Source of the DNA: a virus
Lineage: Duplodnaviria; Caudoviricetes
IMG/VR virus record: IMGVR_UViG_3300032096_000018
Location: 1 to 54,391 of that record
Reading direction: 5' to 3' (one strand)
Length of the DNA stretch: 54,391 nucleotides
Part shown: piece after piece, positions 1 through 16,692 of the stretch
How positions within the stretch are numbered: position 1 is the first letter of the stretch
Layout: every line of letters starts with the position of its first letter
The notes under the pieces: model-generated
Told to the model about the DNA's origin: nothing
What the model saw: the letters and a program-made list of their open reading frames with translations, nothing else
Database searches by the model: none
Made by a program: the position numbers and the translations under genes

Positions 1-90
1 ATGGTCATCGAAATCCTGGCCGGCGCCGCCTTCTTCATCGGCGGTTTATGGCTGATGAAAAAGGCGTTTGAGGCGATCGGCTTACTTTAG
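1..90 (+). CDS. Small hydrophobic peptide (29 aa, MVIEILAGAAFFIGGLWLMKKAFEAIGLL), possibly 5'-truncated
   Basis: ATG at 1, TAG at 88-90, one hydrophobic stretch; converges on the giant gene. Confidence 0.35.
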   Translation: MVIEILAGAAFFIGGLWLMKKAFEAIGLL

Positions 91-3000
91 CACCACCCGG
101 TTGTACAGGGTGTTGAACCGCTTGATCTCGGCCACGATCTCGTCGTCGATCGCCTCAACCCGATCCTTGCTGGCGTCCCGCGCCTTGAGCAGATCCTTGC
201 GCTTGCGCAGCGCTTTCAATCGCTTCTCCGTGGTCTTGAGCCGGCCGAGCATCTTGCGCTCGTCAGCAAAGCGCGTGGCGACCTCCTGGTACTCCTCGCC
301 GGTGAACGTGTCCAACTCCCGCTTTAGCGTCTCGAGACTGCTCTTGCGGTCGTAGTACATCTCGTAATCCATCGTGTCGTACTCGCTGCCGAACAGCTTG
401 CGGTAGAACGGCGCGTTGCGCTTCTCGATCTCCTCGCCAGGCGCCGCGGCCCGATACCCGGTGTCGATCGTGTTGAGCACGAAATGCCCGGCGCCGCCCG
501 TCATCGTGCTAACCAGCAGATCCAGCGACTCCGGCGACACGTCGAACGCCCCCGACCGAAGCTCGTTGCCGCCGGTAAGCTCATTGAGCGTCTGCGTGAT
601 CCACTTCGACGGCGCCGAGGCGGTCGCGAAATACCGCTCGCTGTCCGGCCGCTCCGAGAATGGGTTTTGGTCGGGCATCAGCGGCCCGCCGTGCCAGGCC
701 GTGTTGGTGGCGATGCTCACGCCCGGATCAAGCAGCGTCGGCGACAGGGTGAGCAGCGGCGAGGCAGACGAGATCGGGTTGAACGCGTCCATCGTGGCCG
801 TCGCCAGTCGCCCGGCCTCCCCGGCAATCGAGTAGGTCGGGATCGGGTCGATGGCGTTGCTCACGCCGCGGCCGATCGTTTGCCCGACGACGTGGAACAC
901 GTTGTAGCCCCAGGGCGCCGGGATCGTCACATAGTCGTCCTTCCCGCCGCCGTAGACGATAACGATGTTCCGGTCTTTGACGTGGTTCGGCAGCTTGTCG
1001 TACCACGTCAGCCCGTCGTCGTCCTCGTCGCTTAGTGCCCGGTTCACCATGTCGAGCACCGCCGCGGCAACTACCGTGGCGCCGGCCATCGCCTGCACCT
1101 TTCGGCTCTTGCCCAAGGCGCTGAACATGCGGGCCGTGCCCTGCACGCTGGCGTTGAAGAACAGATACATGGTGTTCATCAACTGCCCCTGCGCGCCCCG
1201 GCGGTTGAAGTTGACCGTCAGGTTCTTCGCCAGGTTCGCCGCCTTGGCCGAGCTCATGCCGTTGCGTCGACCGTGAACGAAGGCAGACAGTCGCACCGCG
1301 TTCTCGATCGCGTTGTTGGCATCCATGATGAGATCCGACGCCGCGCGCAGCGCCTTTTTCGACCGGTGCCCCGGGCCGATCATCGCAAGCTCGCGGTTGA
1401 TCGCGTTGGCTCGATCCTCGACGTTCTCGTAAATGTCCATCCAGCCGACCATGCCACCGGCCCGCTCGAACTCGTCGGCCCAGCGATCCCACTCGGTTTC
1501 TACCGTGCCGCGCCGGCTGCGCCACATGGCCTTGATGCCGTGCTTCGATGCGTCCTTGACGATCCGCGTCGCCATGTCGTGAAGCTCGGTGTCGCCGAGG
1601 TTGTAGAACGCCGTTTGCAGGTCGCGGGCGTAGTTTGTGATCGTGAACTCGGGGTTGAGCGAGGTGTTGACCATCGACAGCACGCGCATGATGCCGTGCA
1701 TGAACTGCATCAACTTGGGCATCTGCTTCTGCGTCAGGTTGCGCATTTCACTGACGAGCCGCATCGCCTGCGGATTCTTGTCGTTGAAGGTCACGCGCAC
1801 CGACTTGCCGCCCACCTTCACGCTCAACTCGTTGTCGCGCAGCATCGGATCAGGGCGGTAAACCACCTCGCCGGCCGCGTTTAGCGCGGCCACCTTGCGC
1901 GGCTTGTCGATCTCCCAAAGGTTCGGGTCGGGGTGCTCGGTCACAAGCTCGAGCAACGCCTGGCCGACCAGGTTCTTCTCGCCGCGCGTGGCGCTGGCCT
2001 CGTACTGAGCAACCATATGCGTGAAGATCAGGCCATGCTCGACCGGCTTGGTCGAGCCCGCCCGCACCTTCGACTCCTTGCCGGCGATATGGAAGCCCTG
2101 CCCCTTGGCCGGCATGTTGGGTACGTCGGCCAGGTCGCCATCCTCATCGGTGAGCATGTCGCGATGCAGCGGGACATAGTGCTGATACATGCTCGCCCAC
2201 GACTCCGCTTGCTCTGGTGACAGCAGGCCGTCGTCCACCATCTTTTCGAGGCGAGTGCGGTTCATTTCATCGACGCTCCGACCGACTTCCTGCATGTCCG
2301 CGTTGTCCGCGTACTCGGTCAGGATGGCGTCAGCCTCCTGGTTGCTCATGCCTGACAACGCTTGGTTGTCCTCCCGATCCGGGTTGCGCTCGGCCAGTAC
2401 CGCGTTTGCTTCCTTGGCGTGGCGGGCGTGCAGGAATCGACCTACCTCCTCCATGTCAAAGCCGCCGCGGTTCATCACCTCGAGGATCGGCTTGACGTGG
2501 AAATCATCGAGATCATCGAGCCGCTTGCGCGCCCGGCCGGCGAAGTTTTCCTGCGCCATCATGGCGTCGGCCGTCTCGGGAACGGAGCCCGCCGCTTTCT
2601 GGAAGTCGGCGAGATCCTTGAACCGATCCACGATGTTGTAGATGAACGAATCGAGCGCCTTGTCCGACGACGACTTGAGGCGGGTGAATCCGCCGTTGCG
2701 CGGTGGGCGCTCGGATGCCGTCGGGCCGCGGCTGAAATGAATCCGCGGGTCGGAGCCATCGAATGCGCCGCTATTCGGGCCGGAGCCATCCATCGGCTGC
2801 CCGTTGAACAGGGAGCGAACCGGCCCATCTTCTGCCGACTTGATTTGCTCGGGCTCGAATGCGACGAAAACGGAATGCGGCCGGGTTGCGGTGACGTTGT
2901 AGGTGTCTACCGTGTTTCGGATTACAAGCCCGTCGTGTCCGTCGCGCTTTGCCTGCTCAAGCTGCTCACCCTGGGCGGCCGGGCCGCCTCGGGCGCCCCA

Positions 3001-6000
3001 AGACCGGCCGCCGGCGTCCACTTCCATCGGGTTTTTGATCGACAGGTACAGTTGGCCGATCGCGTTCTCGGCGTTCTGATAGTCAAACGCCCGGCTGTCA
3101 TCGGCATAGGTGCGCGCAACGTCACGGCGATCGGTGAAGAAGAAAGCCGCCTCCGGGTCGTCCTCGCCGTATCGCTGCCACATCGTTTGAAATTTGCCGT
3201 CCTGATCGAACAGGCCGCGAGCGTCGGGCGATCCGTGGAATGCCACCATCGGGCGCCCCTGCTCATCGACCACCCTCGAGTCGCCGAACCAGCGCCAGAA
3301 GTTGCGCACGCCCTGCTCATCGGCAGCGATCGGCTGGCCGTTGCTGTTTCGCGCCGGGCGCCGCTTGCCATCCACTTCGATCGCGTCGGGGAGCGAGTCG
3401 CCACCCTGCGATCGCGAGTACCAGGCGCGACCGTCGCTCGAGGTAACGATCTCGCCGATCTCGGCCATCGATCGGATGCCGCCGCCTTGGCCCGAGACAA
3501 AGCCATCGAGCACTCGCGCCTTGCCCTTCTCCACCAGGTAGCGCGCGACGTTGTTCGCCACTTCCTCGCTCGACGCCTTGATGATGGTCGCCGCGGCGCC
3601 GCTGTCATGCAGCGCCTTGAGGATGCGGGGGATCGTGTCGCCATCGCGAAGGCGTGACATTTCCTCGTTGGACAGCGCCAGGCTGCCAATGACCTGATGG
3701 GTGTTGGCAAGCAAGAGGATGCCGCTATCGGCGTCCATGTCCTCGACAAACGCCTTCGCATCAGCCGGCGCCTTGATCTCGGGTGCCCCGCTCATTCGTC
3801 GGCGCCGCACCTGGCTCTCGGTGATTGAGATAGTGCGGTCTCGTCGCGCCGGCGTAATAGCGATGGTGTCGCTGCCATCGCCCAGCGCGTCGATAAACGT
3901 CGCGCTGCGCCCTTCGCCAAACACGACATGGCCGGCCGTCTCAATGCCGGAGCCATCCAGCGCTGTGTTCAGTGTGCCGGTGATACGCAAGTCGGCTCTT
4001 GAGGCGATCATCCGGCCGCTTGGATGGTTGTGCCCAAACCAGACTTGCTTCGCGCCAGGCACCGACGCGACGGATGATGCGATCACGCCCGGATCTGCCG
4101 GCGCAGACGACATATCGCCCTTGCCGTGGCGTTGCAGGTCGAGGATCTTGCCGTCGCCGTCAGTCACCAGGGCATAGAAGTTTTCCACGCCATGCTTTCG
4201 GATCGGCGCCATGACGTGCGCCGCCTGCTCGGCGCTCGAGACGGTATCGAATGCCGATTGCACCTTACCGATCGGGACGCGCTTTCGCTTGATGCGGAAG
4301 TTGTCGGCAAGCTGCGCCTTTTGGGCGGGCTCGCTGGGCGCCGGATCCAAGTCGAGGGCGTACTGATTCGCCGGGTCGCGCACCTCGGACTGCCGCCCTG
4401 CCGATCGGGCGTACCGGGTTTGCTCAACGAACGCCCGCGCCGGCTCGATGTAGTCACGAACGATCTCGGCGTCAGTCACTCCCATGTCGCGGAACATCGG
4501 CACGTTCTCGCGGAGCCACTGGCGGATTGCGGCGATGGCCCGGCGCACAAAGCCGATCTCCGGCTTGTCCTGGGCAAGCTCGGCCAGCACCTCCTCGGCG
4601 GCGATGCGGCGATCGCTCTGCATGCGCTCGCGAGCCAGCCGGTTCAACTCGTCCAGCGAGTAGGTGCGCCCGTCGGCGTCGCCCTCCTCGGCCACCTGCA
4701 TGCGCGCGTCGCGCAGATTGGTGACAAGTCCGTACTCCTTCGCCTTGGCGCGAATGTCGGCCGGCCGCGCCTTGGCGAGCCGATCAAGCTCGCCGTCCAG
4801 CGCATCACCGAACACGCCGCGCAGCCCGTAGTGGCCCAACGCCTCGTGGAACAGCACGCGCTCGGCGTCCTGCACCGATCCCAGCGCGCCAGAAACGACG
4901 TACACGCGCCCCTGGTAGTAGAACCCTTGGGGCTGCCCTTCGGCGCCCTGCGATAGCTGGCGCTCGTTCTCTGCCTGCACGTCGCTCGGCACGCGCGGGT
5001 CGCTCATGCTCTCGACCACAATCGCATCGGGTGCGTTTGCCCAGCCCTTCGTGATGCCGCGCACGGCGCGCTCGACTTGCTCGTGCATACCGAAGGCCGC
5101 GCCGGTCTGACTGGCCCGGCTGAACATCACCACGTTGCCGTCGGCGCCCTCCTCCGTCTCGATCACCGAAAACAGGGTGTCGAACGCCTGGGTGATGGGC
5201 TCAAGCTCGTCGGGAAGTAGGTACGGATAGCGCTCGGGGTCGCGCGTGAACTCCTCGACCGAAACGACGTTCGCCAGGAACTCGTTGCGCCCACTCTCCT
5301 GGCGCATCTTCTCGATCATGTAGCTCTCGAAGCCGCGGGCGGCCCGCTCGATGATCTGCGACCAATACTTCTTGCTGCGGCTGCCGTCGATCGCCTCGGT
5401 GCGCTTGGTCATCGGCGACTTGTCCAGCGCCTCGGTTAGCTCGGCGAATGCCGCGCCCACCTCTGGCCGGATGCCGCCGACGTACTCCCACTGCGACCGG
5501 TCGCGCCCGGCGGGCAGGATCTTTCGGCCACCCATGTACGACTTGCCGGCCATCGCGTCATCAAAGTGCCGCTCGGGAATGCGGATCGACGGGCGATCCT
5601 TGTGCCGGTAGTAGTTCTCCGGCCCGTAGGTGATGAAATTGTCCTCGGTCTTGTTCGATGCCGGCTCGCCGCGCTTCAACTGGAAATGGTTGTCGAGCGC
5701 GTGGAACCACTCGTGCGCCAGGCTGCCGGCGCCCCGGGTCTTAGTCAGGTTGATAACGAAGGTGTCGGGCTCGAAGTGCGCCGATGCCCAGCCGCGACCG
5801 CGGGCGCCAAAGGCAATGCCCAGCCGGCCGCCAAGCGAGATCGCACGCGGCGGCACGCCCAGCACGTCGGCCATGTCCATCAGGCCGTCATAGGCCGCGT
5901 TCAGGATGCCTTGGCGCTCCTTGGCGTTCTTACCTTGCTGAACCCATTTCCCGAACTCGCCACCACGGAACCCGAAGGTGTCTTGGAACTGCTCAACGGT

Positions 6001-9000
6001 AATGTCGCGGCCGTTGCGGTGATCCTTGCCGATCCGGTCGCGGTTGTCCTTGCGGCGAAGGTCAGTTTTCCGCACGTTGTCCCGTGCCTTGATCGCCTCC
6101 CATGCTTCGGCCAGGGCGTCGGTGTTGCTGCGCAAGAACTCGCGCGCCTCGTCCACGGTGTCGAACTGGCGCAGCGTGCGCATCTGCTTGTCACCGGTGC
6201 GATTGATCGTCACCTCGCCGGTGCGCGTGTTGCGCCGGATCTCGTACTTGCGGCGCTCGTCGGCGCTCGATTCCTGCTCGGGCTCGGACTGCGCAAGGTA
6301 CTCGGCCACTTGCGGCGCGATCTCCTCGGCCTGGCCGGAGCCCTCGAAGCTCTTGCGGCGGTCATCGACTCGAACCGCGACCTGCGGACTTTGGACGGTG
6401 TAGGTGTTGCCAGGCGGTCCCTTGATCTGGTGCGCATCGGGGAACTCCTCGACGTGACCAATGCGCGACCACTCCGATTCATCAATCTGCTCTAGCAGCT
6501 TGACCTTGGCGAACATGGTGCGCTTGAGACGGCGGTACTCCGGCTCGTCGGCCACCTCCTCGATGCGGTCACGAGTAATCCGGCCGTCGCGGATCGCCTC
6601 AAAAATGCCGCGCATCATCTTGACCTCATTCACCCAAGCGCGCTTCTTCCACGCATCGCGTGGCTTGCGACGGATGTTTGAGCGCGCGGCCGTGGCAAAC
6701 GCCCGGCCCCACTTGGTCGGCATTTCCTCGATCTCGGACAGCGGCCAGAGCTTGCTCAACGGCTGCTTGCCGATCTCGTCGTCGGTCATTTCGCCAATGC
6801 TCGACCGCTGATCGCGGCGGGCCGGCGGCAGTGCGTCGCCGAACTGATCCGGGGTGATTTGTGTATCACCGTCGGCGGTTTCGTTATCAGCAACGTCGGT
6901 TGCTTGTTGCTCGTTATCGTCAACCGGCGCGTCCTGGTCAGCGCGATCATTGGCGCCGCCATCGTCGTCCACTTCACTGCTGGGGAATTCCCGGGCGGCC
7001 TCGAGCACGTCGTCAATCGGCGCGTCCAGCCGTATCACGCGAACATCGCTGCCTTGATCGGCATCAGCCATCCACTGGTGATGCCCATCGACTACATGAT
7101 CGTCTGACGATACGAGAATGGCTCGGTCGCCGCCCTCGCGATCCTTGGCGGCGTCAATGCGCGCCTCGGAGAATTCGCGCTGGGTCGGTTTAAGGGACAG
7201 GGCCGGTACCGTTTCCTCGACGCTCTCAATTCCCCGAGCAGAAAGGAAATTTGCCAAGGCGCCTCGGTGCTCGGATTTGACTTGCGGCATTTCCGATCGA
7301 GGTATGCCGCGAGTGCCCGACTCATCGGAAAAGGACGACCACTCATCATCAATGGGGGCGCCCCGCATGTTGCGGGCTTGCTGGTCGGATTCGGCGCTCT
7401 GGCCGTCTGCCGCCGAGATCGGCGTGGCGTAGTCGTCCTCGATGATCTCGCCGGCGGCGTTCTCGTAAACGCCCGGCTCGTCATCGAGCTCGCGCAGTGG
7501 CTCGCCGGTGGCGCTTTCGTGGGTCGGGGTGAAGCCGTCGGTTACGCCTTGCGCGGCGGCAGGGTTGCCGACTTGATCCGCGTTCCCTTCGGCAGTGTCG
7601 CCAGGTACTCCGGCGTCACTTCGGGCTGGCGTGCGCTCGACGCCTGGCGGGTCTTGCTCGCGGCCGGCTCGGAGCCCATCGCGCTCGCGCTGCTGCTTGT
7701 GCTCTTGTAGGCGCCGCTCCGCGCGCCGTTCCGCTTGCTTGAGGTCATTGGTCGCTCCGCTTGCGATTCCGTAGCTCAATCCGATGCCGGTCTTGGCGGT
7801 GATCGAGCCATCGTCGTGCTCAAATACGATAGTAGCGCCTGCGAGGCGATCTGCAATGCGCTGCATGGCCTGCTCGGCATCGGCCTCGCTGTCGGCCTGC
7901 ATCCAGAACTCATCGCCGGACTTGTGGTAAGCCTCGACGCCCTCGCCGGCCAGCGCCTCGCCAATCAGGGCAAGCATCTTGTCGCCCGAGGCGTGGTCGA
8001 AATTGTCGTTGATCCACTTGAGCGAGTCGGCGTCGATCGATACCTGCACATCGCGCGGGCTGTTCGCCCACGCGCGCACCAGCGCCGCGCCGTTTCCGAG
8101 GCCGGTCATGGGGTCGGTGTAAACCTGCGCGCGAAGCTGCTCGATCGCCTGCCGCATCTGCTCCGGGGTCATGGCCGCCGGGTCGGCGTCGGCCGCCAAG
8201 GCGCGAATGTTGGCGTTTTCATCGGCGCGGCGGTCAGCATCGGGCTCGGCCTGGGTGGCTGCGTCCGGCTGGCCGGTGGCTTCCGTGGTTTCTGCGGTGT
8301 CTGTGGCCTCCGGCTGCGGCTGGGCGCCCTGGGGAACCAGCACAAAGCCGCCATCGACGGCTTGCAGGTCGTGGGTCTTGGCAAGCCCGCGGTTGGTGCG
8401 TGCGGTCTTGGCGGCGCGCTCGGTGGCGAACGGGGTACCGTCGCTCTTGGTCTGGGCGCCTTCGGGGATTCCTACTTGAGCGTCCCGCGCTTGCGGTGCT
8501 TCATCGTTAGCTCGGGGATCTCGTCCCGACGCCTCTCGACCGCTCGACTCGTCCCGGGCTCGTTCTTGCCCACCCGGGCGATCTGATCCAGTAGCAGGTT
8601 GTCCGCTTTCGGTGAATAGGCCGGACTGCGCCCCGGGCTGCCCTTCTTGTTGCTCGATTCGGTCACGCTGCGTCTCCAATGTCTGCTGCGGGTCGGCGCG
8701 GTCGCCGAACATATCTTCGCCCGGCATGGTGGCGCGGGCATTCTCAGTGTAGCCAACCAGGCCGTCCGTCACCTTGGCCTTGGCCCGCGGGCGCTTGAAC
8801 GCCTCATCGCGGAAGAACAGGCGCAGGAACGTCTCGGCGACCGGGTTGATCGCATCGCCAGAAAGCAGATCACGTTGATCGGCCAAGCCCTTGATTGACT
8901 TGCCCTCTTTGCGAGCGCGCATCACCACATCAACGGCTTCTGTCAGCGCGTCGGTCACGTCCATCGCCGGATCGATGTTGCCGGCCTCGGCCTCGGCGCG

Positions 9001-12000
9001 CATCTGCGCCCACTGGCCGGCGGCGTCGATCAACGACTCGCCGATGCCCTTGATCTCGGTGTCGGCCGACTCGGCAAGCTCGGCGATCAGGCCCGGGTTG
9101 TCGTATGCCTTGGCGAGCAGCGCGAGCCGCAAACGGCGAGCACCGTCGGCAGACAGCGTGCCGTCGCCCTGCATCATGCCGGCGGCGCTGGCCGGGCCGC
9201 CAAAGTCGTTGATGGCCGATCGAACGAAATCGCGGTTGGCGGCTGTGTTCACGTCGCCGCCGCGGTAGTTCCCGATCGTCGCGTCGCTCATCGTGCGCGC
9301 GTCGGTGATCGCCTGCTCGGTGGCGGAAAGCTCAGCCCCGGCCGCCATGTTCGAGGCCGCGCCCGGGCTCTCGAGGTCGGCAATGGCGTTCTCATCGAAC
9401 AGCCGCACCATCACCGGGTTTTCTTTTGACTCGATCGCGGCGCGCGGGATGCCGTGGGCCTCCTCATCGAGCAGCATCGCCTCGCGGTAGTTGCTTGCCG
9501 TGCCCTGCTCCCACGCGCTCTTGAGCCCGGCCGCCCGGCCGTTGTTGAGCGCAGTCAGGCCGCGTGCGCCGTACTCGTCGTTTCGGTTGCCGCTGGCATC
9601 GTGGGACGGTTGCAGTTCGGCCGCCTCGACAACGGCGTAACGCACGGGCACCCGGCGGGAGCCGCCGCGGCCGTCGGCCATCGTCACGGTGTCCTCACGC
9701 CCCATGTCGGAGTCGGCGACGTTGTAGCCGTCGCGCGGGAAGGCCATTGGCGCGCCCGAGTCGGGCGTGCGGGAAATGCTCACCCGGTCATAGTCGGGGT
9801 TAGTCGCAATGTCGCGCACCTGCGCTTGCAGGGCGGCCCGGGAGCGATCGCGGTTTTGCAGGGCGTCGGTATCGAGTCGCCCGGCCACCTCCTCCTCGGG
9901 AGCGGCGACGTTGGTTTCGCCGCCGGCCGCGTTGGCGGTCTGCTCGGCCTCGTTCAGCGCGCCGGCCAGGCTTTCCGCGTCGGCAAGCTCGGATCGAACG
10001 ATGTTGCCGTCGGCGTCGGTTGCCTGCACGGCCTGGGCGGAATCGAGATCAATGTCGCCCTTGGGCTTCTGGTAGCCAAGAATGGCCGCGCGCACTTCCT
10101 CCGGGGACAGGCCGGTTTCCTCGGCCTCGAGGATGCGGTCGCGCTGGGTCACGTCGCGGGCGATCCATGTGCCGCCATCGACTGACTCGACCGCCAAGCC
10201 GACCTCGGCCGCCTGGCGCGCCTCGCCGGTCAGTTGATCCGTGGTGCCGTCAAAGAAAACCGGCTCCTCGCGGGCGCCATCGCGCAGCGCGCGGATCTGC
10301 GCGTTGATCTGGTCGTCGGGCTCCGGCATGGTGCCGCTCGGCCCGGCGTCGTCCTGCGCAAGCACGGCGGCCGGGGTCACGTCCGGGGTGCCGGCCCCGG
10401 CCGGGGTCATCGGGTTGGAATTGACCTTATCGTTGGCGCGTGTTGCGTCGCCCAAGTCGATCGGCGCGCCCTGGTCGCCGTAGGCCATGCCCTGCGGCTG
10501 GTTCAGCGCGCTTGCCAGCGACGGGGCCGCGGCCCGTCCAAGCGGGCCGGACTGGCGCACCTGGTTGATCTGCTCGACCGCCTGCTCTTTCGCCTGCGTC
10601 TCGGGCGCCGGGGTGTCGTCGCTGGTGATCGCAGCAAAGCGCGGGCCGTTCTCGCCCGGGATCACCTGCACCACGTCACGCTTGCCGTCCGGGCCGCGCA
10701 CCATCGCCTGATCGTCGGCCAGGGCGGAAATGAACTCGCGTTCACCCAGCCCTTCGACAAACACGGAGCGATCGGGGTTGATCGGCTGCTCGGAAGCCGC
10801 GGCCTCCTGGCGCTTTTTCACCTGCCCGTCGGCGCGATCGACAACGTACTCGTCCGGGTCGCCGGCGCCCTTATCCTCGGGCGAGACTTCGCGCCGCGCC
10901 TGCTCGCGGGCGGCCTGCCAAATCTCGTCGGGGATCTCGTCAACGCTGCGGCCGTTTTCGCGCGCCCACTGACCTGCCAGGTCGCCGGCCCGCTTGTTGA
11001 TGTTCGTCTCGGGCTCGCCATCGCCCGGAGTGCCGTCGTTGGCCCGTGGCTCCTCGCCTGGGCCGGCCGCTCCCTCAATCACGCCGGCAGCCGTACCGGT
11101 CGGCCCGCCGAAGGCAAAGCCTTGCGCCGCGGCAACGCCAGCGCCCTCGGTGAGCGACTGATCCTCGTCCACCTTGCCTAGCTGGTAGTTTTCGGCGCCC
11201 TGCTGGAATGCCTCATCACCCGCCTGGGTCGCCCCTTCGGCTGTGCCGACCTTGGCGCCCTGCTTGATGGCGCCGCCCATGCCGCCGCGGTTCTTCTGCC
11301 ATGAGCCGGTGATTACCCGCTCGAGCCCGCGCGATGCAGGCAGGGCGTTCATCAGGCCGGTGAACATGCCGGCCGTGACGCCGGCGGTGGTCGATAGGTC
11401 GTCGGCGATCGTCTTGACCGCCTGCTCCTCGGTCGCGCCCTCGGCAAGCAGCGCCTCGTACTGGCTCTTGACCGCCGGCTCGGCGGCCTGCATGAACTCC
11501 TCGGGGCCGAGATCCACGAGCGAGTCGTAGGTCTGCGATTTGGTCATCGCGCCCGACTCGGCCATGCCGACGCCCACGGCGGTGCCGGTGCCGGCGTAGT
11601 TGCCGGCCTTGTTCGCCGCCTCGTCGCTCTTGCCCAGCCTCTTGGCCGCGCCCTTGGTGAGCGCCTTGGCGCCAAGGCCAGCCAAGCCACCGGCAACCGT
11701 CGTCGGGCCTTCCTCGGCGAGCAGGCCGGCGAGCAAATCCTTGTCGCTGAACGTGTGGCGCAACCAGGCCGCACCCTTTGCCAACTCGCCGTCGGCCGCC
11801 TCAACGTCTCGATCCCGGGCCTCAATGTCGGCCTGATACTGCGCGCTGCGCTCGCCCTCGGCCTCCTCCTGCATTTCCTGGCCCTTGGCCCGCAACGCGT
11901 TGTCCATGCCGCCCAGCGGGCGGGCAAGCAGCGTGCCGATGGTTTCGGCGCCCTGGCCGGCGCCGGCTTTCAGGTCGGAACGTCGATCGCCACCCCATCC

Positions 12001-12240
12001 CTCGTTGAACTCGCGCATTTCATCGACGCGATCGGTGAGATACCCGCCTCGAGCAACGTGGTCGCGCTGCTCATCGGACATGCCGAACAGGCTCGTGCCC
12101 TCACCCTCTTTGTCCGCCTGGCCGGCCAGCGGCTTAACGTGTTCGTCCCACGATCGAAGGATGTACTCGTCATCCAGATCGGGGCGCTTCTCTTTGACTT
12201 GACGTAGGAACTCGCGGGGCGGGATATATTTTTCGGCCAT
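82..12240 (-). CDS. Giant polyvalent internal-virion (ejection) protein, 4052 aa: DdrB-like ParB, GGDEF, ParB/Srx, LPD1-like and second metallopeptidase, JAB/RadC, ART-like, LPD38-like C-terminus
   Basis: Motifs LQNRDR..GAP/YAVVE..SHD; TDPMTGLGN..INDNFDHASGD..SGDEF; VVDGHH; AHEWFH; HEALGH; HNHPSG..SRAD; WFGDSRVVDEQGRPMVAFHGS; WYDKLP..TIPAPWGY. Last gene of the structural operon, after the ejection genes; RBS GGAG. Confidence 0.88.
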   Translation of the reverse strand: MAEKYIPPREFLRQVKEKRPDLDDEYILRSWDEHVKPLAGQADKEGEGTSLFGMSDEQRDHVARGGYLTDRVDEMREFNEGWGGDRRSDLKAGAGQGAETIGTLLARPLGGMDNALRAKGQEMQEEAEGERSAQYQADIEARDRDVEAADGELAKGAAWLRHTFSDKDLLAGLLAEEGPTTVAGGLAGLGAKALTKGAAKRLGKSDEAANKAGNYAGTGTAVGVGMAESGAMTKSQTYDSLVDLGPEEFMQAAEPAVKSQYEALLAEGATEEQAVKTIADDLSTTAGVTAGMFTGLMNALPASRGLERVITGSWQKNRGGMGGAIKQGAKVGTAEGATQAGDEAFQQGAENYQLGKVDEDQSLTEGAGVAAAQGFAFGGPTGTAAGVIEGAAGPGEEPRANDGTPGDGEPETNINKRAGDLAGQWARENGRSVDEIPDEIWQAAREQARREVSPEDKGAGDPDEYVVDRADGQVKKRQEAAASEQPINPDRSVFVEGLGEREFISALADDQAMVRGPDGKRDVVQVIPGENGPRFAAITSDDTPAPETQAKEQAVEQINQVRQSGPLGRAAAPSLASALNQPQGMAYGDQGAPIDLGDATRANDKVNSNPMTPAGAGTPDVTPAAVLAQDDAGPSGTMPEPDDQINAQIRALRDGAREEPVFFDGTTDQLTGEARQAAEVGLAVESVDGGTWIARDVTQRDRILEAEETGLSPEEVRAAILGYQKPKGDIDLDSAQAVQATDADGNIVRSELADAESLAGALNEAEQTANAAGGETNVAAPEEEVAGRLDTDALQNRDRSRAALQAQVRDIATNPDYDRVSISRTPDSGAPMAFPRDGYNVADSDMGREDTVTMADGRGGSRRVPVRYAVVEAAELQPSHDASGNRNDEYGARGLTALNNGRAAGLKSAWEQGTASNYREAMLLDEEAHGIPRAAIESKENPVMVRLFDENAIADLESPGAASNMAAGAELSATEQAITDARTMSDATIGNYRGGDVNTAANRDFVRSAINDFGGPASAAGMMQGDGTLSADGARRLRLALLAKAYDNPGLIAELAESADTEIKGIGESLIDAAGQWAQMRAEAEAGNIDPAMDVTDALTEAVDVVMRARKEGKSIKGLADQRDLLSGDAINPVAETFLRLFFRDEAFKRPRAKAKVTDGLVGYTENARATMPGEDMFGDRADPQQTLETQRDRIEQQEGQPGAQSGLFTESGQPATGSDRPGGQERARDESSGREASGRDPRANDEAPQARDAQVGIPEGAQTKSDGTPFATERAAKTARTNRGLAKTHDLQAVDGGFVLVPQGAQPQPEATDTAETTEATGQPDAATQAEPDADRRADENANIRALAADADPAAMTPEQMRQAIEQLRAQVYTDPMTGLGNGAALVRAWANSPRDVQVSIDADSLKWINDNFDHASGDKMLALIGEALAGEGVEAYHKSGDEFWMQADSEADAEQAMQRIADRLAGATIVFEHDDGSITAKTGIGLSYGIASGATNDLKQAERRAERRLQEHKQQRERDGLRAGREQDPPGVERTPARSDAGVPGDTAEGNADQVGNPAAAQGVTDGFTPTHESATGEPLRELDDEPGVYENAAGEIIEDDYATPISAADGQSAESDQQARNMRGAPIDDEWSSFSDESGTRGIPRSEMPQVKSEHRGALANFLSARGIESVEETVPALSLKPTQREFSEARIDAAKDREGGDRAILVSSDDHVVDGHHQWMADADQGSDVRVIRLDAPIDDVLEAAREFPSSEVDDDGGANDRADQDAPVDDNEQQATDVADNETADGDTQITPDQFGDALPPARRDQRSSIGEMTDDEIGKQPLSKLWPLSEIEEMPTKWGRAFATAARSNIRRKPRDAWKKRAWVNEVKMMRGIFEAIRDGRITRDRIEEVADEPEYRRLKRTMFAKVKLLEQIDESEWSRIGHVEEFPDAHQIKGPPGNTYTVQSPQVAVRVDDRRKSFEGSGQAEEIAPQVAEYLAQSEPEQESSADERRKYEIRRNTRTGEVTINRTGDKQMRTLRQFDTVDEAREFLRSNTDALAEAWEAIKARDNVRKTDLRRKDNRDRIGKDHRNGRDITVEQFQDTFGFRGGEFGKWVQQGKNAKERQGILNAAYDGLMDMADVLGVPPRAISLGGRLGIAFGARGRGWASAHFEPDTFVINLTKTRGAGSLAHEWFHALDNHFQLKRGEPASNKTEDNFITYGPENYYRHKDRPSIRIPERHFDDAMAGKSYMGGRKILPAGRDRSQWEYVGGIRPEVGAAFAELTEALDKSPMTKRTEAIDGSRSKKYWSQIIERAARGFESYMIEKMRQESGRNEFLANVVSVEEFTRDPERYPYLLPDELEPITQAFDTLFSVIETEEGADGNVVMFSRASQTGAAFGMHEQVERAVRGITKGWANAPDAIVVESMSDPRVPSDVQAENERQLSQGAEGQPQGFYYQGRVYVVSGALGSVQDAERVLFHEALGHYGLRGVFGDALDGELDRLAKARPADIRAKAKEYGLVTNLRDARMQVAEEGDADGRTYSLDELNRLARERMQSDRRIAAEEVLAELAQDKPEIGFVRRAIAAIRQWLRENVPMFRDMGVTDAEIVRDYIEPARAFVEQTRYARSAGRQSEVRDPANQYALDLDPAPSEPAQKAQLADNFRIKRKRVPIGKVQSAFDTVSSAEQAAHVMAPIRKHGVENFYALVTDGDGKILDLQRHGKGDMSSAPADPGVIASSVASVPGAKQVWFGHNHPSGRMIASRADLRITGTLNTALDGSGIETAGHVVFGEGRSATFIDALGDGSDTIAITPARRDRTISITESQVRRRRMSGAPEIKAPADAKAFVEDMDADSGILLLANTHQVIGSLALSNEEMSRLRDGDTIPRILKALHDSGAAATIIKASSEEVANNVARYLVEKGKARVLDGFVSGQGGGIRSMAEIGEIVTSSDGRAWYSRSQGGDSLPDAIEVDGKRRPARNSNGQPIAADEQGVRNFWRWFGDSRVVDEQGRPMVAFHGSPDARGLFDQDGKFQTMWQRYGEDDPEAAFFFTDRRDVARTYADDSRAFDYQNAENAIGQLYLSIKNPMEVDAGGRSWGARGGPAAQGEQLEQAKRDGHDGLVIRNTVDTYNVTATRPHSVFVAFEPEQIKSAEDGPVRSLFNGQPMDGSGPNSGAFDGSDPRIHFSRGPTASERPPRNGGFTRLKSSSDKALDSFIYNIVDRFKDLADFQKAAGSVPETADAMMAQENFAGRARKRLDDLDDFHVKPILEVMNRGGFDMEEVGRFLHARHAKEANAVLAERNPDREDNQALSGMSNQEADAILTEYADNADMQEVGRSVDEMNRTRLEKMVDDGLLSPEQAESWASMYQHYVPLHRDMLTDEDGDLADVPNMPAKGQGFHIAGKESKVRAGSTKPVEHGLIFTHMVAQYEASATRGEKNLVGQALLELVTEHPDPNLWEIDKPRKVAALNAAGEVVYRPDPMLRDNELSVKVGGKSVRVTFNDKNPQAMRLVSEMRNLTQKQMPKLMQFMHGIMRVLSMVNTSLNPEFTITNYARDLQTAFYNLGDTELHDMATRIVKDASKHGIKAMWRSRRGTVETEWDRWADEFERAGGMVGWMDIYENVEDRANAINRELAMIGPGHRSKKALRAASDLIMDANNAIENAVRLSAFVHGRRNGMSSAKAANLAKNLTVNFNRRGAQGQLMNTMYLFFNASVQGTARMFSALGKSRKVQAMAGATVVAAAVLDMVNRALSDEDDDGLTWYDKLPNHVKDRNIVIVYGGGKDDYVTIPAPWGYNVFHVVGQTIGRGVSNAIDPIPTYSIAGEAGRLATATMDAFNPISSASPLLTLSPTLLDPGVSIATNTAWHGGPLMPDQNPFSERPDSERYFATASAPSKWITQTLNELTGGNELRSGAFDVSPESLDLLVSTMTGGAGHFVLNTIDTGYRAAAPGEEIEKRNAPFYRKLFGSEYDTMDYEMYYDRKSSLETLKRELDTFTGEEYQEVATRFADERKMLGRLKTTEKRLKALRKRKDLLKARDASKDRVEAIDDEIVAEIKRFNTLYNRVVLK

Positions 12241-12328: not shown

Positions 12329-13948
12329 TCAGTCGGCGAGCAATGTGCTCAAGTCCTCGGTGGTCGGCGCGCCACCCCCGGACGACGATGATCGGCCACT
12401 CGGCACCCCAATGAGCCCGTTGAGCATCTGATCGATGCGCTTGCGCTGGTTCTCGAGCGACAGGATCTCGCGCTCCATTTCCGCGCGGCGCACCTCATCG
12501 GTCGTGACCTGCATTTCCTCCTGCATGGCACTGATCCGCTCGTCAATCTGGCCGCCGTATTGGCGAAGCTCCTGCGTTCTAGCCTCGTCGAACTCGCCAC
12601 CACCCTCGCCGAGTGAGCGCATGCCGCGCAGATCATCGGTGCTGACCGCCTTGCCATCGCTTCGGATCGGCAGGCCGTTGTCGTCGCGGTAGATATAGAC
12701 CGGCTTGCCGCCTTCGCCCTCGACCACGCCCAACACGTCCGGCCGTGAACGCTCGAGCAGCGCGTCCTCGTTCTCCATCGAGGCGCCTCGACGCTGCTCG
12801 TCGCGCAGCCGGGCGGTTGCCGTGCTGGCACCAGCCGATGCGCGTCGCTGGGTCACAAGGGCATCCGACTCGCGACCGGAGCGAATCATGTCGTCCTGCT
12901 CCTTGATCGTCTGCGCGTTGAAAAGCTGCTGGTAGCCATTGATCCGGCGCGTCTGCCCATCCTCGGTGCGCACGATCAACTCGTGCGTCTTGATCGGGCG
13001 CCCGCCCACGTTGGCAACTGTCGGCCGGAAGCCAACCACCATGTCCTCGGTGATGCGCTCCTTGCCCGTCTTGTTGAACGCCTCGAGCGCCCGTTTGAGG
13101 TTGCCGCCGTGAACCGCCTTGATGGCCTCTTCGTAGCCCTCGTTGTCCAGCTTCTTGCGCCATTCGGCGATTGCCTTGGCGCCCTCTGCGTCCATCGGCG
13201 CCCCAAGCTGGGCCGCGCCCTTCGCCATGTGCTTCGCGTACTTGAGCGCGCCGCCCTCGGATTCAATGTCGCCGTCGAACGACTGCGCGTGCATCGCCAT
13301 CGTCTGCTGACGCGCGGCGTCGAGCACCGGCTGCATTTCCTTGAACAACTCGGGCGTCACGGCCACCCGGCGCATAAGCTCCTGATACCGTTTGCCGGCA
13401 TCCTTGATGTCGAACGAGGTGCGCGATGGCTTGCGCTGCTCGCGCTTGCCGGTGGATCGCCCATCGCCACCCTGGCGTGCCGAGACGCGCGCCGCATCGT
13501 CACCCGATCGAGTCATGGCGCCAATAGACGGAAGCTCGCTACCGGGCGCCGACGCGTCGGCCGCTTTACCCCGCCCGGTAGCCGCCGGCTTTTTTCGGCG
13601 TTCTCCCTGGTCGCCCTGCAAGGCGGTAGACAGCGTGAGCCCGCCGCCCGGCTCCTGGCCCTTGAGCGGCGTGGTCTTGGCCCGACCCTCGGGGTTTCGT
13701 TGCAGGTTGCGCTCCTGCGGCCCGGCCTCTCGGCCATCGCTTGAGCCCATCGTGTCGGATGCCGGGGCGGCGCCTTCTCGCTGACCGCCCGATGACTGCG
13801 GGTCGCCAGCGGTGCCCTGCATGAACTCGCGCACCGCCTTCATTGCGTTGCGCCTCTCCTTCTCTTTGTCCTTGCCGGTGCGCCAGTCGTCGCCGACCAT
13901 GTAGCCCTCGACGGCGCCCTTGAGTGCGTGACCTAGTTGCAACGCCAT
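12329..13948 (-). CDS. Putative internal virion/DNA ejection protein (539 aa)
   Basis: Long helical, low-complexity ORF between the DNA-transfer gene and the giant protein; podovirus synteny. Confidence 0.6.
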   Translation of the reverse strand: MALQLGHALKGAVEGYMVGDDWRTGKDKEKERRNAMKAVREFMQGTAGDPQSSGGQREGAAPASDTMGSSDGREAGPQERNLQRNPEGRAKTTPLKGQEPGGGLTLSTALQGDQGERRKKPAATGRGKAADASAPGSELPSIGAMTRSGDDAARVSARQGGDGRSTGKREQRKPSRTSFDIKDAGKRYQELMRRVAVTPELFKEMQPVLDAARQQTMAMHAQSFDGDIESEGGALKYAKHMAKGAAQLGAPMDAEGAKAIAEWRKKLDNEGYEEAIKAVHGGNLKRALEAFNKTGKERITEDMVVGFRPTVANVGGRPIKTHELIVRTEDGQTRRINGYQQLFNAQTIKEQDDMIRSGRESDALVTQRRASAGASTATARLRDEQRRGASMENEDALLERSRPDVLGVVEGEGGKPVYIYRDDNGLPIRSDGKAVSTDDLRGMRSLGEGGGEFDEARTQELRQYGGQIDERISAMQEEMQVTTDEVRRAEMEREILSLENQRKRIDQMLNGLIGVPSGRSSSSGGGAPTTEDLSTLLAD

Positions 13949-13960
13949 ACCAAACCCCCT

Positions 13961-14773
13961 TTACATCATCATGGCGCCGGCCATGCCGATCGCCGAGCCA
14001 AGTGCCGCCGAACTGTCAGAACCGCGCTGCTCGGCCTGGTTGTACATATTCGCCTGTCCATTGAGCGCCGTGCCCATGCCGCTTTGCATCATCTGCCGGC
14101 CACTGCCGATCGTGCTCGAGCCCTGGCCCAATCCGGCCATCAGGTTTTGCCCGGGCTGCTGCGTGTTGCTCGCCGCTGAATTGCCCGCATTGGTCGCCAC
14201 CCCATAGGCGCCCGTAGAGGCGCCGGCCAGATTTCTGCCCAAGCCGGCCGCGTCCATTTTGCGTGCGTAGCCAAGGTTCTCTGCCTGCGTGCGGGCGGTG
14301 TTCATGGCCCCGGCCTTGTTCGCCGCGTTGGTCAGCCCGGTCTGCGCCTGGATCGCCTGATACTTGCCCGAATTGGGATTGACGCCCATCGAGGCCATCG
14401 TGCGCTCGTTGGACTGCCGGGCCTGCGTCTGCTGCTTTTCGTAGTCTGCGGCAGCCTGGCCGGCGCGACGCTCGAACTCGGCCTGCGTGTCGAACTCCTG
14501 CGCGTCGCTGACCAACTCCTTCTCGAGCGGGCGATACGTCTCGCTCAAGTAGTCGTAGTAGTCGCGCCCTTGCTGCTGCGTCTCGTCCATCGTCGCAATC
14601 TGCGACTCCGTGACTTGCTCAATCAGCGGCAACGTGCGCTCGTACTGGCGCCGGGCCTCGTCTAGCTGCTGATAGCCGAGATCGGCCATGATTGCGGCCG
14701 ACTCTTTGCTCGCATTCGCCAACTGGCTGTAATCCGGCGGCGGCGGAGAAGAACCTTTACCACCCATCGTCAA
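13961..14773 (-). CDS. Putative DNA-transfer/pilot ejection protein (270 aa)
   Basis: MGGKGSSPPPPDY N-terminus, Gln/Ala/Gly-rich, Gly-rich hydrophobic C-terminus; follows the GNAT-like gene as in other podoviruses. Confidence 0.65.
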   Translation of the reverse strand: MTMGGKGSSPPPPDYSQLANASKESAAIMADLGYQQLDEARRQYERTLPLIEQVTESQIATMDETQQQGRDYYDYLSETYRPLEKELVSDAQEFDTQAEFERRAGQAAADYEKQQTQARQSNERTMASMGVNPNSGKYQAIQAQTGLTNAANKAGAMNTARTQAENLGYARKMDAAGLGRNLAGASTGAYGVATNAGNSAASNTQQPGQNLMAGLGQGSSTIGSGRQMMQSGMGTALNGQANMYNQAEQRGSDSSAALGSAIGMAGAMMM

Positions 14774-15336
14774 TCACCTCGCTGCTTGATCCAGCGGCAT
14801 TTTTCCTTCCACATGACCAACATGATGACAGCGCCGCCAGCATTTCCATGCGGCACCGTAAACTCGTGCTCGAACCCAAGGTGCTTGTCGAATCGCAGCG
14901 CCTCGTGGTTGTGCTCCGAGACGAGCCCGGTGAGGCGTTTGAGCCCGCACTGATTGAAGGCGTAATCGAAGCAGGCGAACAGGAACGTCTTGGTGAGCCA
15001 CCGCTTGCCGACGCCCGCGATATGAACGTGGGCGTTCGTCTCCGTCATGTTGTTGAGAACGAACCCGGCGACAAGCTCGCCCGATTCGCCCTCGAGCCCG
15101 ATCGCCTCAAAGCTGCCCCAATGCCCCAACTGATCGACGCGATCCGCCACCCAGGCGCCGACGCGCTCGCGATCATCCAGAACCAGCCGTGGCCGGTCGC
15201 CGCGAAATGGCTTGGGCTGCATGCCGGCGACGCTCGAGGCCACCGGCTCATCAAGCTCGGCGTCGATGCCTACCTGAATGCCAACGATCATTTCCGGTGT
15301 CAGGCGATTGCCCTCGTTGTTCCACAATGCGCGCAT
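14770..15336 (-). CDS. GNAT-like acetyltransferase in the virion-assembly module
   Basis: FDYAFNQCGLKRLTGLVSEHNHEALRFDKHLGFEHE matches RimJ/RimL-type GNAT; usual position before ejection genes. Confidence 0.75.
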   Translation of the reverse strand: MRALWNNEGNRLTPEMIVGIQVGIDAELDEPVASSVAGMQPKPFRGDRPRLVLDDRERVGAWVADRVDQLGHWGSFEAIGLEGESGELVAGFVLNNMTETNAHVHIAGVGKRWLTKTFLFACFDYAFNQCGLKRLTGLVSEHNHEALRFDKHLGFEHEFTVPHGNAGGAVIMLVMWKEKCRWIKQRGD

Positions 15337-15542
15337 CAGATCACGCCGATCTCGGCCAGCTTTAGTTTCGCGGCCTCCTCGATTGCCGCCGGGCCGTCCT
15401 CGCCGGCCTGCTTATCCAGCACCACGTCGTAAGTGTCCACCTTCAACACGCCGCCAACGTCGGTTTTCACCGACACTCGCGCCTCCGTTTTTCCCTCGCC
15501 CGAGTGCTCAATGGCCCACGATTCAATAACTACGCTTTTCAC
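15336..15542 (-). CDS. Hypothetical protein (68 aa)
   Basis: Overlapping start/stop with both neighbours. Confidence 0.6.
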   Translation of the reverse strand: MKSVVIESWAIEHSGEGKTEARVSVKTDVGGVLKVDTYDVVLDKQAGEDGPAAIEEAAKLKLAEIGVI

Positions 15543-15976
15543 TGGAATACCCCCGTTACGATTTTGAATGTCAGAGTCCGGCTTGGGATGCTTGTTCCCT
15601 GCATCAGAACGTAATAATCCTGCGTCAAATAGATATTAGTTCCGCTCCACCAAAGACTGACGACGCTTGCGTTTTCCACGTTTTCCCTTGCCGTGTTTAT
15701 CGTCACGTAATCAAGAAGGCTGCCGCACGAATTCCAATTTGTGGTTGTGTCTCCGCCGGCAAGATTCTTGGTGGTGGCGAGAATGAAATCAGGCACCGCC
15801 GACACTGATCCGACAAGGTACGTGTTTGACCCTACCGACCTGTATGAATACCCCGGGAACGTCTTTGTTACGGTCAACGTATTCGCCTTGACCGCCATTT
15901 TCCTGTTCGTGTCAAACGCCGTCCTGTTGGTCGAGTCCTTTACCAGAATGCGATTGTTCGATATGTAAATGCTCAT
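15539..15976 (-). CDS. Putative small tail-associated protein (145 aa)
   Basis: Beta-rich, Thr/Ser/Tyr/Asn-rich, in-operon, visibly lower GC. Confidence 0.6.
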   Translation of the reverse strand: MSIYISNNRILVKDSTNRTAFDTNRKMAVKANTLTVTKTFPGYSYRSVGSNTYLVGSVSAVPDFILATTKNLAGGDTTTNWNSCGSLLDYVTINTARENVENASVVSLWWSGTNIYLTQDYYVLMQGTSIPSRTLTFKIVTGVFQ

Positions 15977-15979
15977 CCG

Positions 15980-16246
15980 TCACGAACTCAACATGATGAT
16001 GCTGGTATAGGCGCCGCTCGGGTTGTATTCGTGCTGCGGGTATGTCCCTTTGAAGAATCCATTGAATTCATAGCCAATCGAGTTATAGCCCGCGTCGTAT
16101 GTGTCGTTGCTCCATCGATACATGGTGCGCCCGGCGGGAAACGCAAAGTCGCCACCGGTGGTCACTTTATGGATATAGGCATTGTCCGAATCGAAACGGC
16201 CGCCGGAGAAAACAACGCGCGTTGGGATGATGCTGATAACCTGCAT
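15980..16246 (-). CDS. Putative small tail-associated protein (88 aa)
   Basis: Tightly packed in-operon ORF, aromatic-rich. Confidence 0.55.
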   Translation of the reverse strand: MQVISIIPTRVVFSGGRFDSDNAYIHKVTTGGDFAFPAGRTMYRWSNDTYDAGYNSIGYEFNGFFKGTYPQHEYNPSGAYTSIIMLSS

Positions 16247-16247
16247 A

Positions 16248-16691: not shown

Positions 16692-16692
16692 G

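Follow-up and report, generated by a model that had tools for sequence, protein, structure and literature searches.

Can a phage pack, within one of its own virion proteins, an enzyme that makes a bacterial second messenger, and could that enzyme act as soon as the phage DNA has entered the cell? The question is raised by a GGDEF domain with the active-site motif SGDEF, encoded inside the gene of a polyvalent giant protein (P0001) of 4052 amino acids (aa) in the IMG/VR provirus record IMGVR_UViG_3300032096_000018. This record, at its full length of 54,391 bases, is called the window throughout. A first-pass annotation of the window had read the domain as a diguanylate cyclase in a probable virion-injected protein, that is, as a possible source of cyclic di-GMP (c-di-GMP) at infection. 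Our analysis indicates that the domain is real and, judging from its conserved residues, probably an active cyclase. For the whole chain, in which a constitutively dimerizing, feedback-free diguanylate cyclase is carried as virion cargo and would be active right after entry, we estimate a probability of about 0.5.

The five peptides quoted in the first-pass annotation, which gave no strand, were all found in one minus-strand frame, inside a single open reading frame (ORF) that spans positions 82–12240 on the minus strand, begins with ATG and has no internal stop. In the order of the protein, and all on the minus strand, they are the leader helix MTPEQ...AQV (aa 1357–1373, 8122–8172), YTDPMTGLGN (aa 1374–1383, 8092–8121), SIDADSLKWINDNFDHASGDKML (aa 1401–1423, 7972–8040), YHKSGDEF (aa 1438–1445, 7906–7929), and GLSYGIA (aa 1487–1493, 7762–7782); the SGDEF motif itself (aa 1441–1445) lies exactly at 7906–7920, as had been claimed. 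The catalytic domain (aa 1374–1519, 7684–8121) was recognized by the Pfam GGDEF model (PF00990) with 35.2 bits against a cut-off of 23.8 (E-value 1.3e-8), over profile positions 2–159 of 161, and a six-frame search of the record placed it again at 7684–8121 of the minus strand, with 41.8 bits and an E-value of 3.0e-12. A chance match or a wrong frame was ruled out by the Pfam score above the cut-off together with the single open frame. Downstream of the domain follows a clade-specific C-terminal tail (aa 1520–1537, 7630–7683, minus strand) with the consensus G-x-R-A-x-R-G-E-x-P-P-G, which reads here DGLRAGREQDPPGV. Residues 1357–1537 thus form a self-contained unit of a stalk helix, a GGDEF domain with SGDEF, and an Arg-rich tail specific to the clade.

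The residues known from cellular diguanylate cyclases are present in the window copy: D1403 and D1405, K1408, N1411, D1412, H1416, D1420, S1441-G-D-E-F1445, K1515, and R1518. In a single-sequence search of the PDB, SadC was found at an E-value of 9.8e-7, and in the resulting alignment IDADSLKWINDNFDHASGD lies on IDLDHFKRINDRHGHAAGD, SGDEF on GGEEF, and AERRLQEHK on ADQALYRAK. D1403, D1405, K1408, N1411, and D1420 align with SadC IDLDHFKRINDRHGHAAGD (DhFKriNDrhGHaaGD), and the unit therefore has every one of the expected residues: the Asp that binds metal, the Asn and Asp that contact guanine, both acidic residues of the motif, and the last-helix Lys. We take the guanine-contacting Asn and Asp to correspond to N335 and D344 of PleD, and the Lys and Arg of the last helix would correspond to K442 and R446 of the same protein. 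K1515 and R1518 align with the Lys of ADqALYrAK in SadC, whereas the profile alignment sets the R-A-x-R-G of the tail on RAKRG. As for the motif, G-D-E-F is kept from GG(D/E)EF, and the first Gly is replaced by Ser; some SGDEF enzymes are active.

A search of the PDB with a small profile returned 52 chains at an E-value of 1e-5 or better, nearly all of them named diguanylate cyclases or GGDEF proteins. The AlphaFold2 (AF2) model of aa 1340–1540, built from an alignment of 45 sequences, had a mean pLDDT of 92.7 and a pTM of 0.86 and consisted of a long N-terminal helix (the leader forms a helix at model residues 20–34), a GGDEF core, and a confidently modeled C-terminal tail that ends with a short strand (model residues 195–198). 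Foldseek assigned it a probability of 1.00 to more than 30 solved GGDEF domains, with TM-scores of 0.5–0.74 as normalized by the length of the stand-alone GGDEF-domain target; among these were SiaD (7e6g), PleD (9g85), WspR (3bre), DgcB (6ttr, a coiled coil), and TM1788 (4urs), and SadC (4wxo) was found as well. That the domain has a genuine GGDEF fold is in our judgment virtually certain.

An exhaustive search of 1.84 billion cluster representatives yielded 9189 relatives with E-values up to 1e-3; 660 of them lay at or below 1e-10, and 15 at or below 1e-30. The best 150 of the 660 representatives, together with giant proteins from a separate search, made up the set of 162 proteins to which the counts below refer. 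At least 1000 aa long were 134 of these proteins, at least 2000 aa long were 102, and only 7 had less than 400 aa. By these comparisons the clade of the domain is large and distinct, and it is almost confined to giant phage proteins. The same was seen in IMG/VR, where a relative was encoded in 115 stretches, of which 79 loci were kept: the open frame of the domain had at least 1000 aa in 74 of the 79, at least 2000 aa in 52, 300–999 aa in 2, and less than 300 aa in 3, the locus end cutting the frame in 25. When the 201-aa unit was searched against the proteins of 110–352 aa in a collection of 5.8 billion proteins, no match at an E-value of 1e-5 or better was obtained among 1084 candidates, a result that says little because the search needs shared words and its E-values are scaled to a huge database. 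Short relatives exist all the same, namely the 7 under 400 aa and the phage proteins described below.

Outside the unit, the proteins of the clade have little in common. In single-sequence phmmer comparisons the C-terminal module of the window protein was shared by 14 of the 162, its ADP-ribosyltransferase (ART) domain by 19, its RadC domain by 13, and its LPD1 region by 41; in the precomputed Pfam lists of 20 proteins of 2228–7091 aa, LPD38 was present in 6 and ART-PolyVal in 7. Since the other domains vary in this way, the GGDEF unit behaves as a mobile cargo domain.

Within the unit, conservation is high. Along the catalytic region D1403 is kept in 161 of the 162, D1405 in 155, L1407 in 161, K1408 in 157, W1409 in 143, N1411 in 162, D1412 in 161, G1419 in 160, and D1420 in 148 (with Asn in 12), followed by G1442 (162), D1443 (161), E1444 (161), and F1445 (149) in the motif and by K1515 (160) and R1518 (151) near its end. 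The earlier claim that the metal- and GTP-binding residues are retained can thus be extended to the relatives, in which they are kept in 148–162 of the 162. The motif reads SGDEF in 126, GGDEF in 18, and otherwise in 18. At the two borders of the unit, the leader Met (M1357) is kept in 144, and the tail G1522-x-R1524-A-x-R1527-G-E-x-P1531-P-G, which lies outside the Pfam model, in 152–159 (G1522 158, R1524 158, R1527 154, P1531 159). In the subgroup of the window copy (P0022, P0025, P0026, and P0033) the leader helix is seven residues longer and the Arg-Arg that follows TGLxN is missing.

These counts bear first on whether the domain might be catalytically dead and serve the giant protein as a sensor of GTP or c-di-GMP, as a spacer, or in some structural capacity. 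Among cellular GGDEF domains degenerate receptors are common, the motif here is SGDEF in place of GGDEF, and the window copy has neither the Arg-Arg after TGLxN nor the tail Gly. Degenerate GGDEF domains, however, lose the motif and the metal ligands, whereas in this clade G-D-E is kept in 161–162 and the Asp residues of DxD in 155–161 of the 162 proteins, across architectures that are otherwise unrelated; nor is an I-site available for binding c-di-GMP. A degenerate, non-catalytic domain was judged unlikely from this residue conservation, and taking both sides together we regard a dead domain as very improbable. An active cyclase making c-di-GMP is the reading that the conserved residues favor, and we consider it likely.

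The counts bear also on the product. Ser at the base-selecting position of a GGDEF domain gives cyclic GMP-AMP (cGAMP). The first-pass annotation had mentioned 3'3'-cGAMP as a possible product, which would be unlikely for the window copy, as would a hybrid cGAMP-type activity, because this copy has Asp (D1420) at this guanine-selecting position. A related proposal is that the domain is an active nucleotidyltransferase used in counter-defense, yielding a linear pppGpG-type, mixed cyclic or decoy nucleotide, or acting as a GTP sink. The clade does differ from cellular GGDEF domains in the Ser of the motif, in the Trp after Lys, and in the additional Arg-rich tail, the base-selecting Asp is replaced by Asn in the 12 proteins noted above, and the accompanying domains are of counter-defense types (ART, methylase/helicase, RadC, antirestriction); interference with nucleotide-based host responses was raised by Iyer et al. 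(2017; PMC5512222). Against it, the guanine-contacting Asn (all 162) and Asp (148, the window copy included) match standard diguanylate cyclases, the closest structures are all c-di-GMP synthases, and by our own estimate so few enzyme molecules could not plausibly exhaust a GTP pool in the millimolar range. We consider such a nucleotidyltransferase improbable beside a synthase of c-di-GMP.

It had also been claimed that no RxxD inhibitory site precedes the motif, and this proved right. The canonical RxxD I-site, five residues upstream of the motif, is absent from the window copy, where the stretch reads GEGV-EAYHK, and from 159 of the 162 relatives, being present in 3. RxxD strings occur elsewhere in the window domain, at aa 1461, 1518, and 1527; the pairs 1461/1464 and 1518/1521 are not conserved in the clade, and in the pair 1527/1530 R1527 is kept in 154, with D1530 outside the three commonest residues of its column. 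In 94 of the 162 proteins a further RxxD, within the string E-R-R-x-D, was observed no more than 20 residues before the leader Met, in the columns equivalent to aa 1343–1346. This string, which may represent an allosteric site in a shifted position or else serve in processing or recognition, is absent upstream of the leader helix in the window copy.

Diguanylate cyclases need two GGDEF domains, each with one GTP. We modeled two copies of aa 1340–1540 together with two GTP in three runs, along with three controls. The homodimer reached ipSAE values of 0.58, 0.55, and 0.58, against 0.00 for the best control, with contacts that agreed across runs and a partner pLDDT of 90. Of the proteins whose structures were solved as pairs, 20 of 30 attain the ipSAE mark used, against 1 of 23 of those solved as single chains; these reference counts apply only roughly here because our own alignment was used and the ligand GTP was included. 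The modeled interface comprises model residues 10–35 together with 46, 50, and 54, and has the symmetric contacts 20:20, 23:23, 27:27, 30:30, and 34:34. The leader helices are thus predicted to pair as a parallel coiled coil, as in solved stalk cyclases, and the model makes the leader helix a plausible dimerizer.

The unit is also found by itself. In a tblastn search of 50,697 phage records, 53 matched, with at least 80% of the query covered in 28, and they were labeled as phages of Pseudomonas (39), Bordetella (9), Salmonella (2), 'Bacteriophage' (2), and Escherichia (1). The best match had 35.1% identity (E-value 1e-10). Annotations of Yuavirus and Vojvodinavirus phages routinely include solo GGDEF genes; for example, Churro_042 encodes 156 aa and the protein of CN2 (APL99257) has 152 aa. 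Churro_042, the CN2 protein, and YuA gp44 are 31–35% identical to the window copy and have, like the clade, a leader beginning with M-S/T, the string D-x-D-S-L-K-W-x-N-D, the motif S/A-G-D-E-F, and K-x-x-R-E-x-x-G-x-R-A-x-R-G, and they end directly after the Arg-rich tail. Since they share the leader, LKW, the S/AGDEF motif, and the tail, the unit is autonomous in nature, without a sensory domain. Unlike the giant-protein versions, they are encoded by separate small genes and are not part of a virion protein: the genes are located in a non-structural region that lies upstream of the terminase, and in Churro the GGDEF gene adjoins one with a Pfam Antirestrict domain. When the neighbors of the solo genes were compared with the giant protein no homology was found, the GGDEF genes alone being matched. 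About 19 residues of the giant-protein versions, about 8 of them from a helix and about 11 from a beta-hairpin, are missing in the solo proteins (those of L002, 8983–9453, and L003, 8968–9426), and Pfam matches only the first 87–100 positions of the GGDEF profile in them. These minimal versions may or may not have kept cyclase activity.

The protein that carries the unit in the window is of the polyvalent type. Its ORF has a G+C content at third codon positions of 0.83, contains seven Pfam domains, and matches giant-protein families of the PHROG database. In addition to the GGDEF domain it encodes, from the N-terminus and on the minus strand, a ddrB-like ParB domain (aa 792–946, 9403–9867; PF18763, 63 bits), a second ParB-like segment (aa 1637–1760, 6961–7332), LPD5 (aa 1947–2088; PF18799, 79 bits) followed by the HExxH motif HEWFH at aa 2176–2180 (together 5389–6402), LPD1 (aa 2285–2363, 5152–5388; PF18796, 45.5 bits), a RadC-like JAB domain with a GHNHPSG motif (aa 2668–2781, 3898–4239; PF04002, 55 bits), an ART-PolyVal ADP-ribosyltransferase domain (aa 2992–3138, 2827–3267; PF18760, 61.5 bits), and a conserved C-terminal module (aa 3190–4052, 85–2673) that includes LPD38 (aa 3746–3945, 136.7 bits). 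The second ParB-like segment holds LKPTQ and DGHHQ motifs, which we take to be those of ParB; it is 49% identical to aa 949–1071 of gp69 of the Burkholderia podophage JC1 and matches phrog_11358 and phrog_2859. Pfam searches of the eight unassigned segments of the giant protein, this one included, with E-values allowed up to 0.5, gave nothing above the cut-off. The HExxH segment is probably a zincin-like metallopeptidase, as suggested by its motif and by the description of such proteins (Iyer et al. 2017; PMC5512222).

The C-terminal module matches phrog_14770 (E-value 9.7e-255) and phrog_616. A tblastn search with its 863 aa found giant ORFs in 334 phage records, and in 330 of these the match covered at least 80% of the query. 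Most numerous were phages of Vibrio (101), Stx2a-converting phages (77), and phages of Escherichia (73), Ralstonia (31), and Burkholderia (10). The module, which podophages of Vibrio, Ralstonia, and Burkholderia and Stx-converting ones have in common in their giant proteins, is likely to be a packaging or ejection scaffold. As in phage-type polyvalent proteins, GGDEF, ART-PolyVal, RadC/JAB, ddrB-ParB, LPD1, LPD5, and LPD38 are joined with HExxH in one polypeptide, and the gene, as is characteristic of them, is a late one, lying on the same strand as, and downstream of, the genes for portal, capsid, tail fiber, and internal virion protein. RadC/JAB was thus observed in one protein with DdrB-ParB (aa 792–946) and LPD38 (aa 3746–3945), and RadC also accompanies the GGDEF clade in proteins P0011 and P0012.

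The late operon, on the minus strand, comprises the genes for terminase, portal, major capsid, tail fiber, and 'internal virion protein', with the giant gene last, and is syntenic with that of the Bcep22-like podophage JC1, to which BLASTP identities were 42% for the portal, 53% for the major capsid, 34% for gp51, 34% for gp61, 41% for gp63, and 36% for gp64. Three segments of the giant protein aligned with JC1 gp69: a C-terminal one of 920 aa (26% identity) and two shorter ones of 124 aa (49%) and 150 aa (30%). On these grounds it is the positional and, in part, the sequence counterpart of JC1 gp69 and of Bcep22 gp75 ('DarB-like'). In the JC1 report, gp69 was found by mass spectrometry in CsCl-purified virions, with 51 unique peptides (PMC9144972). 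Taken with the position of the gene at the end of the late operon, this homology gives real but indirect support to the earlier view that the giant protein is a virion protein, and its presence in the virions of this phage seems quite likely.

How the parts might work together can be set out as follows. To judge from its synteny and its homology to JC1 gp69, the giant protein would be produced late in the cycle, along with the structural proteins, and be incorporated into the particle. It would then enter with the DNA, following the polyvalent-protein model (Iyer et al. 2017), and its own HExxH peptidase may cut it into domains. Two copies are predicted to pair through their leader helices in a parallel coiled coil, bringing two GTP-loaded GGDEF domains together, and would convert 2 GTP into c-di-GMP and two pyrophosphates. 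To judge from the conserved residues this synthesis would proceed without product inhibition, because the RxxD I-site is absent. One molecule per cell corresponds, by our own estimate, to about 1–2 nM, and a few dimers working at 0.1–1 per second would bring c-di-GMP to about micromolar levels in minutes. Known c-di-GMP receptors cover such levels, and a small number of delivered copies could therefore have an effect, provided that they dimerize. PilZ and EAL domains were looked for in the record and none was matched (HD-GYP was not searched), and since the record encodes neither of these two, the product would act on host receptors and other host components. Candidate benefits are a sessile, low-motility, high-exopolysaccharide state that would block superinfection, an effect on the decision between lysis and lysogeny, and an effect on host defense. 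A stronger and rather doubtful version, which we offer tentatively, is that the SGDEF clade is a dedicated invasion weapon, a virion-carried, constitutively dimeric, feedback-free cyclase whose c-di-GMP, or a related nucleotide, would flood the cell within minutes, before phage expression, and disarm or mislead the host response instead of simply altering the lifestyle of the cell.

Several points weigh against the chain that leads from a packaged cyclase to action at entry. As regards the enzyme, Ser in place of the first Gly of GGDEF departs from the canonical motif; the window copy has Glu at 1528, where 152 of the 162 relatives have Gly, and Gly-Ala where Arg-Arg follows TGLxN (the second Arg is kept in 143), and it carries two insertions relative to the clade consensus. 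The equivalence of K1515 and R1518 to the phosphate-binding Lys and Arg of PleD is ambiguous by one register between the two alignments. The dimer model may have succeeded because the predictor already knew the solved coiled-coil diguanylate cyclases; it shows likeness, not binding, and with few copies per virion dimerization by diffusion would be unlikely unless the copies stay together. As regards delivery, BLASTP gave no alignment of JC1 gp69 over aa 1340–1540, that is, gp69 is without a GGDEF domain, so that its detection in virions is silent on the packaging of the GGDEF-bearing segment. Virion association, moreover, would not be equal to injection, which is suggested here by the polyvalent-protein model. 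No evidence of injection was found for any clade member, and a literature search that covered few subscription journals and no supplements returned no enzymatic, proteomic or infection data on members of the clade. Finally, according to Iyer et al. (PMC5512222), DdrB of phage P1 is cleaved before encapsidation.

This last example belongs to an alternative in which the cyclase is active in the phage-producing cell, late or after induction, or in the lysogen, and the GGDEF segment is not delivered by the particle, for instance because cleavage before packaging lets only the conserved C-terminal module enter the capsid. The HExxH motif within the giant protein would be compatible with such cleavage, and the C-terminal module by itself is widely conserved (the 334 records), yet present in only 14 of the 162 GGDEF-clade proteins. 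Lysogens of the GGDEF-encoding Bordetella phage LK3 show a hyperbiofilm phenotype that has been tentatively attributed to the GGDEF gene, the link being one of correlation only (PMC8471281). On the other hand, the solo homologs have non-structural genes around them, are upstream of the terminase and adjoin an antirestriction gene, a position that fits an early role and follows the same logic as ready-made delivery, and a gene in a late structural operon is unlikely to be expressed in the lysogen. The N4 virion RNA polymerase, also a peptidase-bearing giant, is described by Iyer et al. (PMC5512222) as packaged unprocessed. Action confined to the producing cell or the lysogen thus appears unlikely to us, although less so than the other alternatives, and for the delivery of the GGDEF segment and its action in the first minutes we see the arguments as evenly balanced.

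The phage itself appears to be a temperate, Bcep22-like, short-tailed phage related to Burkholderia podophages such as JC1. The provirus record is about 90% complete by CheckV and has a G+C content of 63.6%. It is read as temperate because it encodes an integrase (53396–54391) and RecT (46066–46872). A megablast search with 23.7 kb for near-identical phage genomes gave just an 80-base capsid match to Pseudomonas phage Skulduggery, and a scan of genome contigs found distant relatives only, the best with 45% identity in a metagenome-assembled genome of the Methylococcaceae.

The late genes directly upstream of the giant gene occupy 12329–19360 on the minus strand and were assigned by PHROGs and by BLASTP to JC1. 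The first of them (12329–13948) encodes a protein of 539 aa with no match in Pfam, in PHROG or by BLASTP to JC1; in JC1 this place is taken by the virion protein gp68 (510 aa). Next come the genes for a virion protein like JC1 gp64 (13961–14773, 36% identity by BLASTP), an acyl-CoA N-acyltransferase (14770–15336; phrog_4470, E-value 1e-37; 41% identity to JC1 gp63), a tail fiber (16693–17727, by PHROGs), and an 'internal virion/head closure' protein like JC1 gp61 (17720–19360; PHROGs, 34% identity by BLASTP). The N-acyltransferase gene thus lies inside the structural operon, in the same relative position as that of JC1 gp63. Further upstream, also on the minus strand, a complete-looking diversity-generating retroelement was observed at 21771–24438. 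It consists of a gene for an Mtd-like tail protein (23419–24438; Pfam mtd_2nd, 84.5 bits), a reverse transcriptase gene (21771–22778; RVT_1, 69.3 bits), and a template repeat of 107 nt (22938–23044) that is 85% identical to the variable repeat at the 3' end of the mtd-like gene (23426–23532); in the repeat core, the mismatches sit at adenines of the template copy.

The first-pass annotation had called the locus a candidate for an undescribed system, which went too far: GGDEF is already listed among the enzymatic domains of polyvalent proteins by Iyer, Burroughs, Anand, de Souza, and Aravind (2017; J Bacteriol 199:e00245-17, PMC5512222), and solo GGDEF genes are annotated in phages. In that article, the example is a prophage protein of Acetonema longum (WP_004096050.1), the domain is called 'not very widespread', and the proteins are predicted to be injected with the phage DNA and to interfere with nucleotide-based host responses or to act against rival elements. 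The idea put forward in the first-pass annotation was therefore already in print as a prediction. Its statement that no virion-borne diguanylate cyclase had been characterized agrees with our literature search, in which no such enzyme and no paper measuring the activity, packaging or delivery of such a domain was found, most subscription journals being outside its coverage. New here are the size of the clade and its signature (SGDEF, no I-site, conserved tail), the link to autonomous proteins of about 150 aa in cultivable Pseudomonas phages, the predicted dimerization through the leader helix, and the connection, drawn by homology, of the carrier type with a proteomically verified virion protein of a related phage. 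If the domain is active and delivered, phages would control a central second messenger of motility, pili, exopolysaccharide, and biofilm from the first moments of infection, without gene expression. The small solo proteins and the 200-aa unit are convenient objects for biochemistry.

Compared with what is known, the window protein resembles the polyvalent proteins described by Iyer et al. (2017; PMC5512222) in being a giant phage or prophage protein that joins GGDEF with ART, metallopeptidase, ParB-like, and LPD domains and is encoded among late virion genes; the likeness to the Acetonema longum protein is by its published description, not by alignment. In contrast to the 'not very widespread' of that article, we found 660 representatives with E-values no higher than 1e-10, and a length of 1000 aa or more in 134 of the 162 clade proteins. 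Also, the window protein combines RadC with LPD38 and DdrB-ParB, whereas there RadC is given for conjugative elements only and LPD38 and DdrB-ParB for phages only. With JC1 gp69 and Bcep22 gp75 (Lessievirus, 'DarB-like antirestriction protein') it has in common the place at the end of a syntenic structural operon, and with gp69 also the C-terminal module, the ParB-like segment, and an N-terminal segment; JC1 gp69 differs in having no GGDEF, a length of 4515 aa, and an annotation with helicase-type domains.

Like SiaD, WspR, DgcB, DgcR, PleD, and SadC, the unit has the GGDEF fold, the catalytic residues, and an N-terminal dimerizing helix, the last as predicted by the model. Unlike these cellular stalk cyclases it has neither sensory nor receiver domains and lacks the I-site that is usual in them, its motif is SGDEF, it carries the additional tail, and its identity to them is 16–26%. 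The closest parallels in mode of action would be the ADP-ribosyltransferase Alt of T4, the virion RNA polymerase of N4, and DarB of P1, which Iyer et al. (2017; PMC5512222) describe as enzymes packed in the capsid for immediate action. Their chemistry is different and none of them makes a second messenger. Should the invasion-weapon version prove true, the cyclase would be the first enzyme making a second messenger for which delivery by a virion had been shown.

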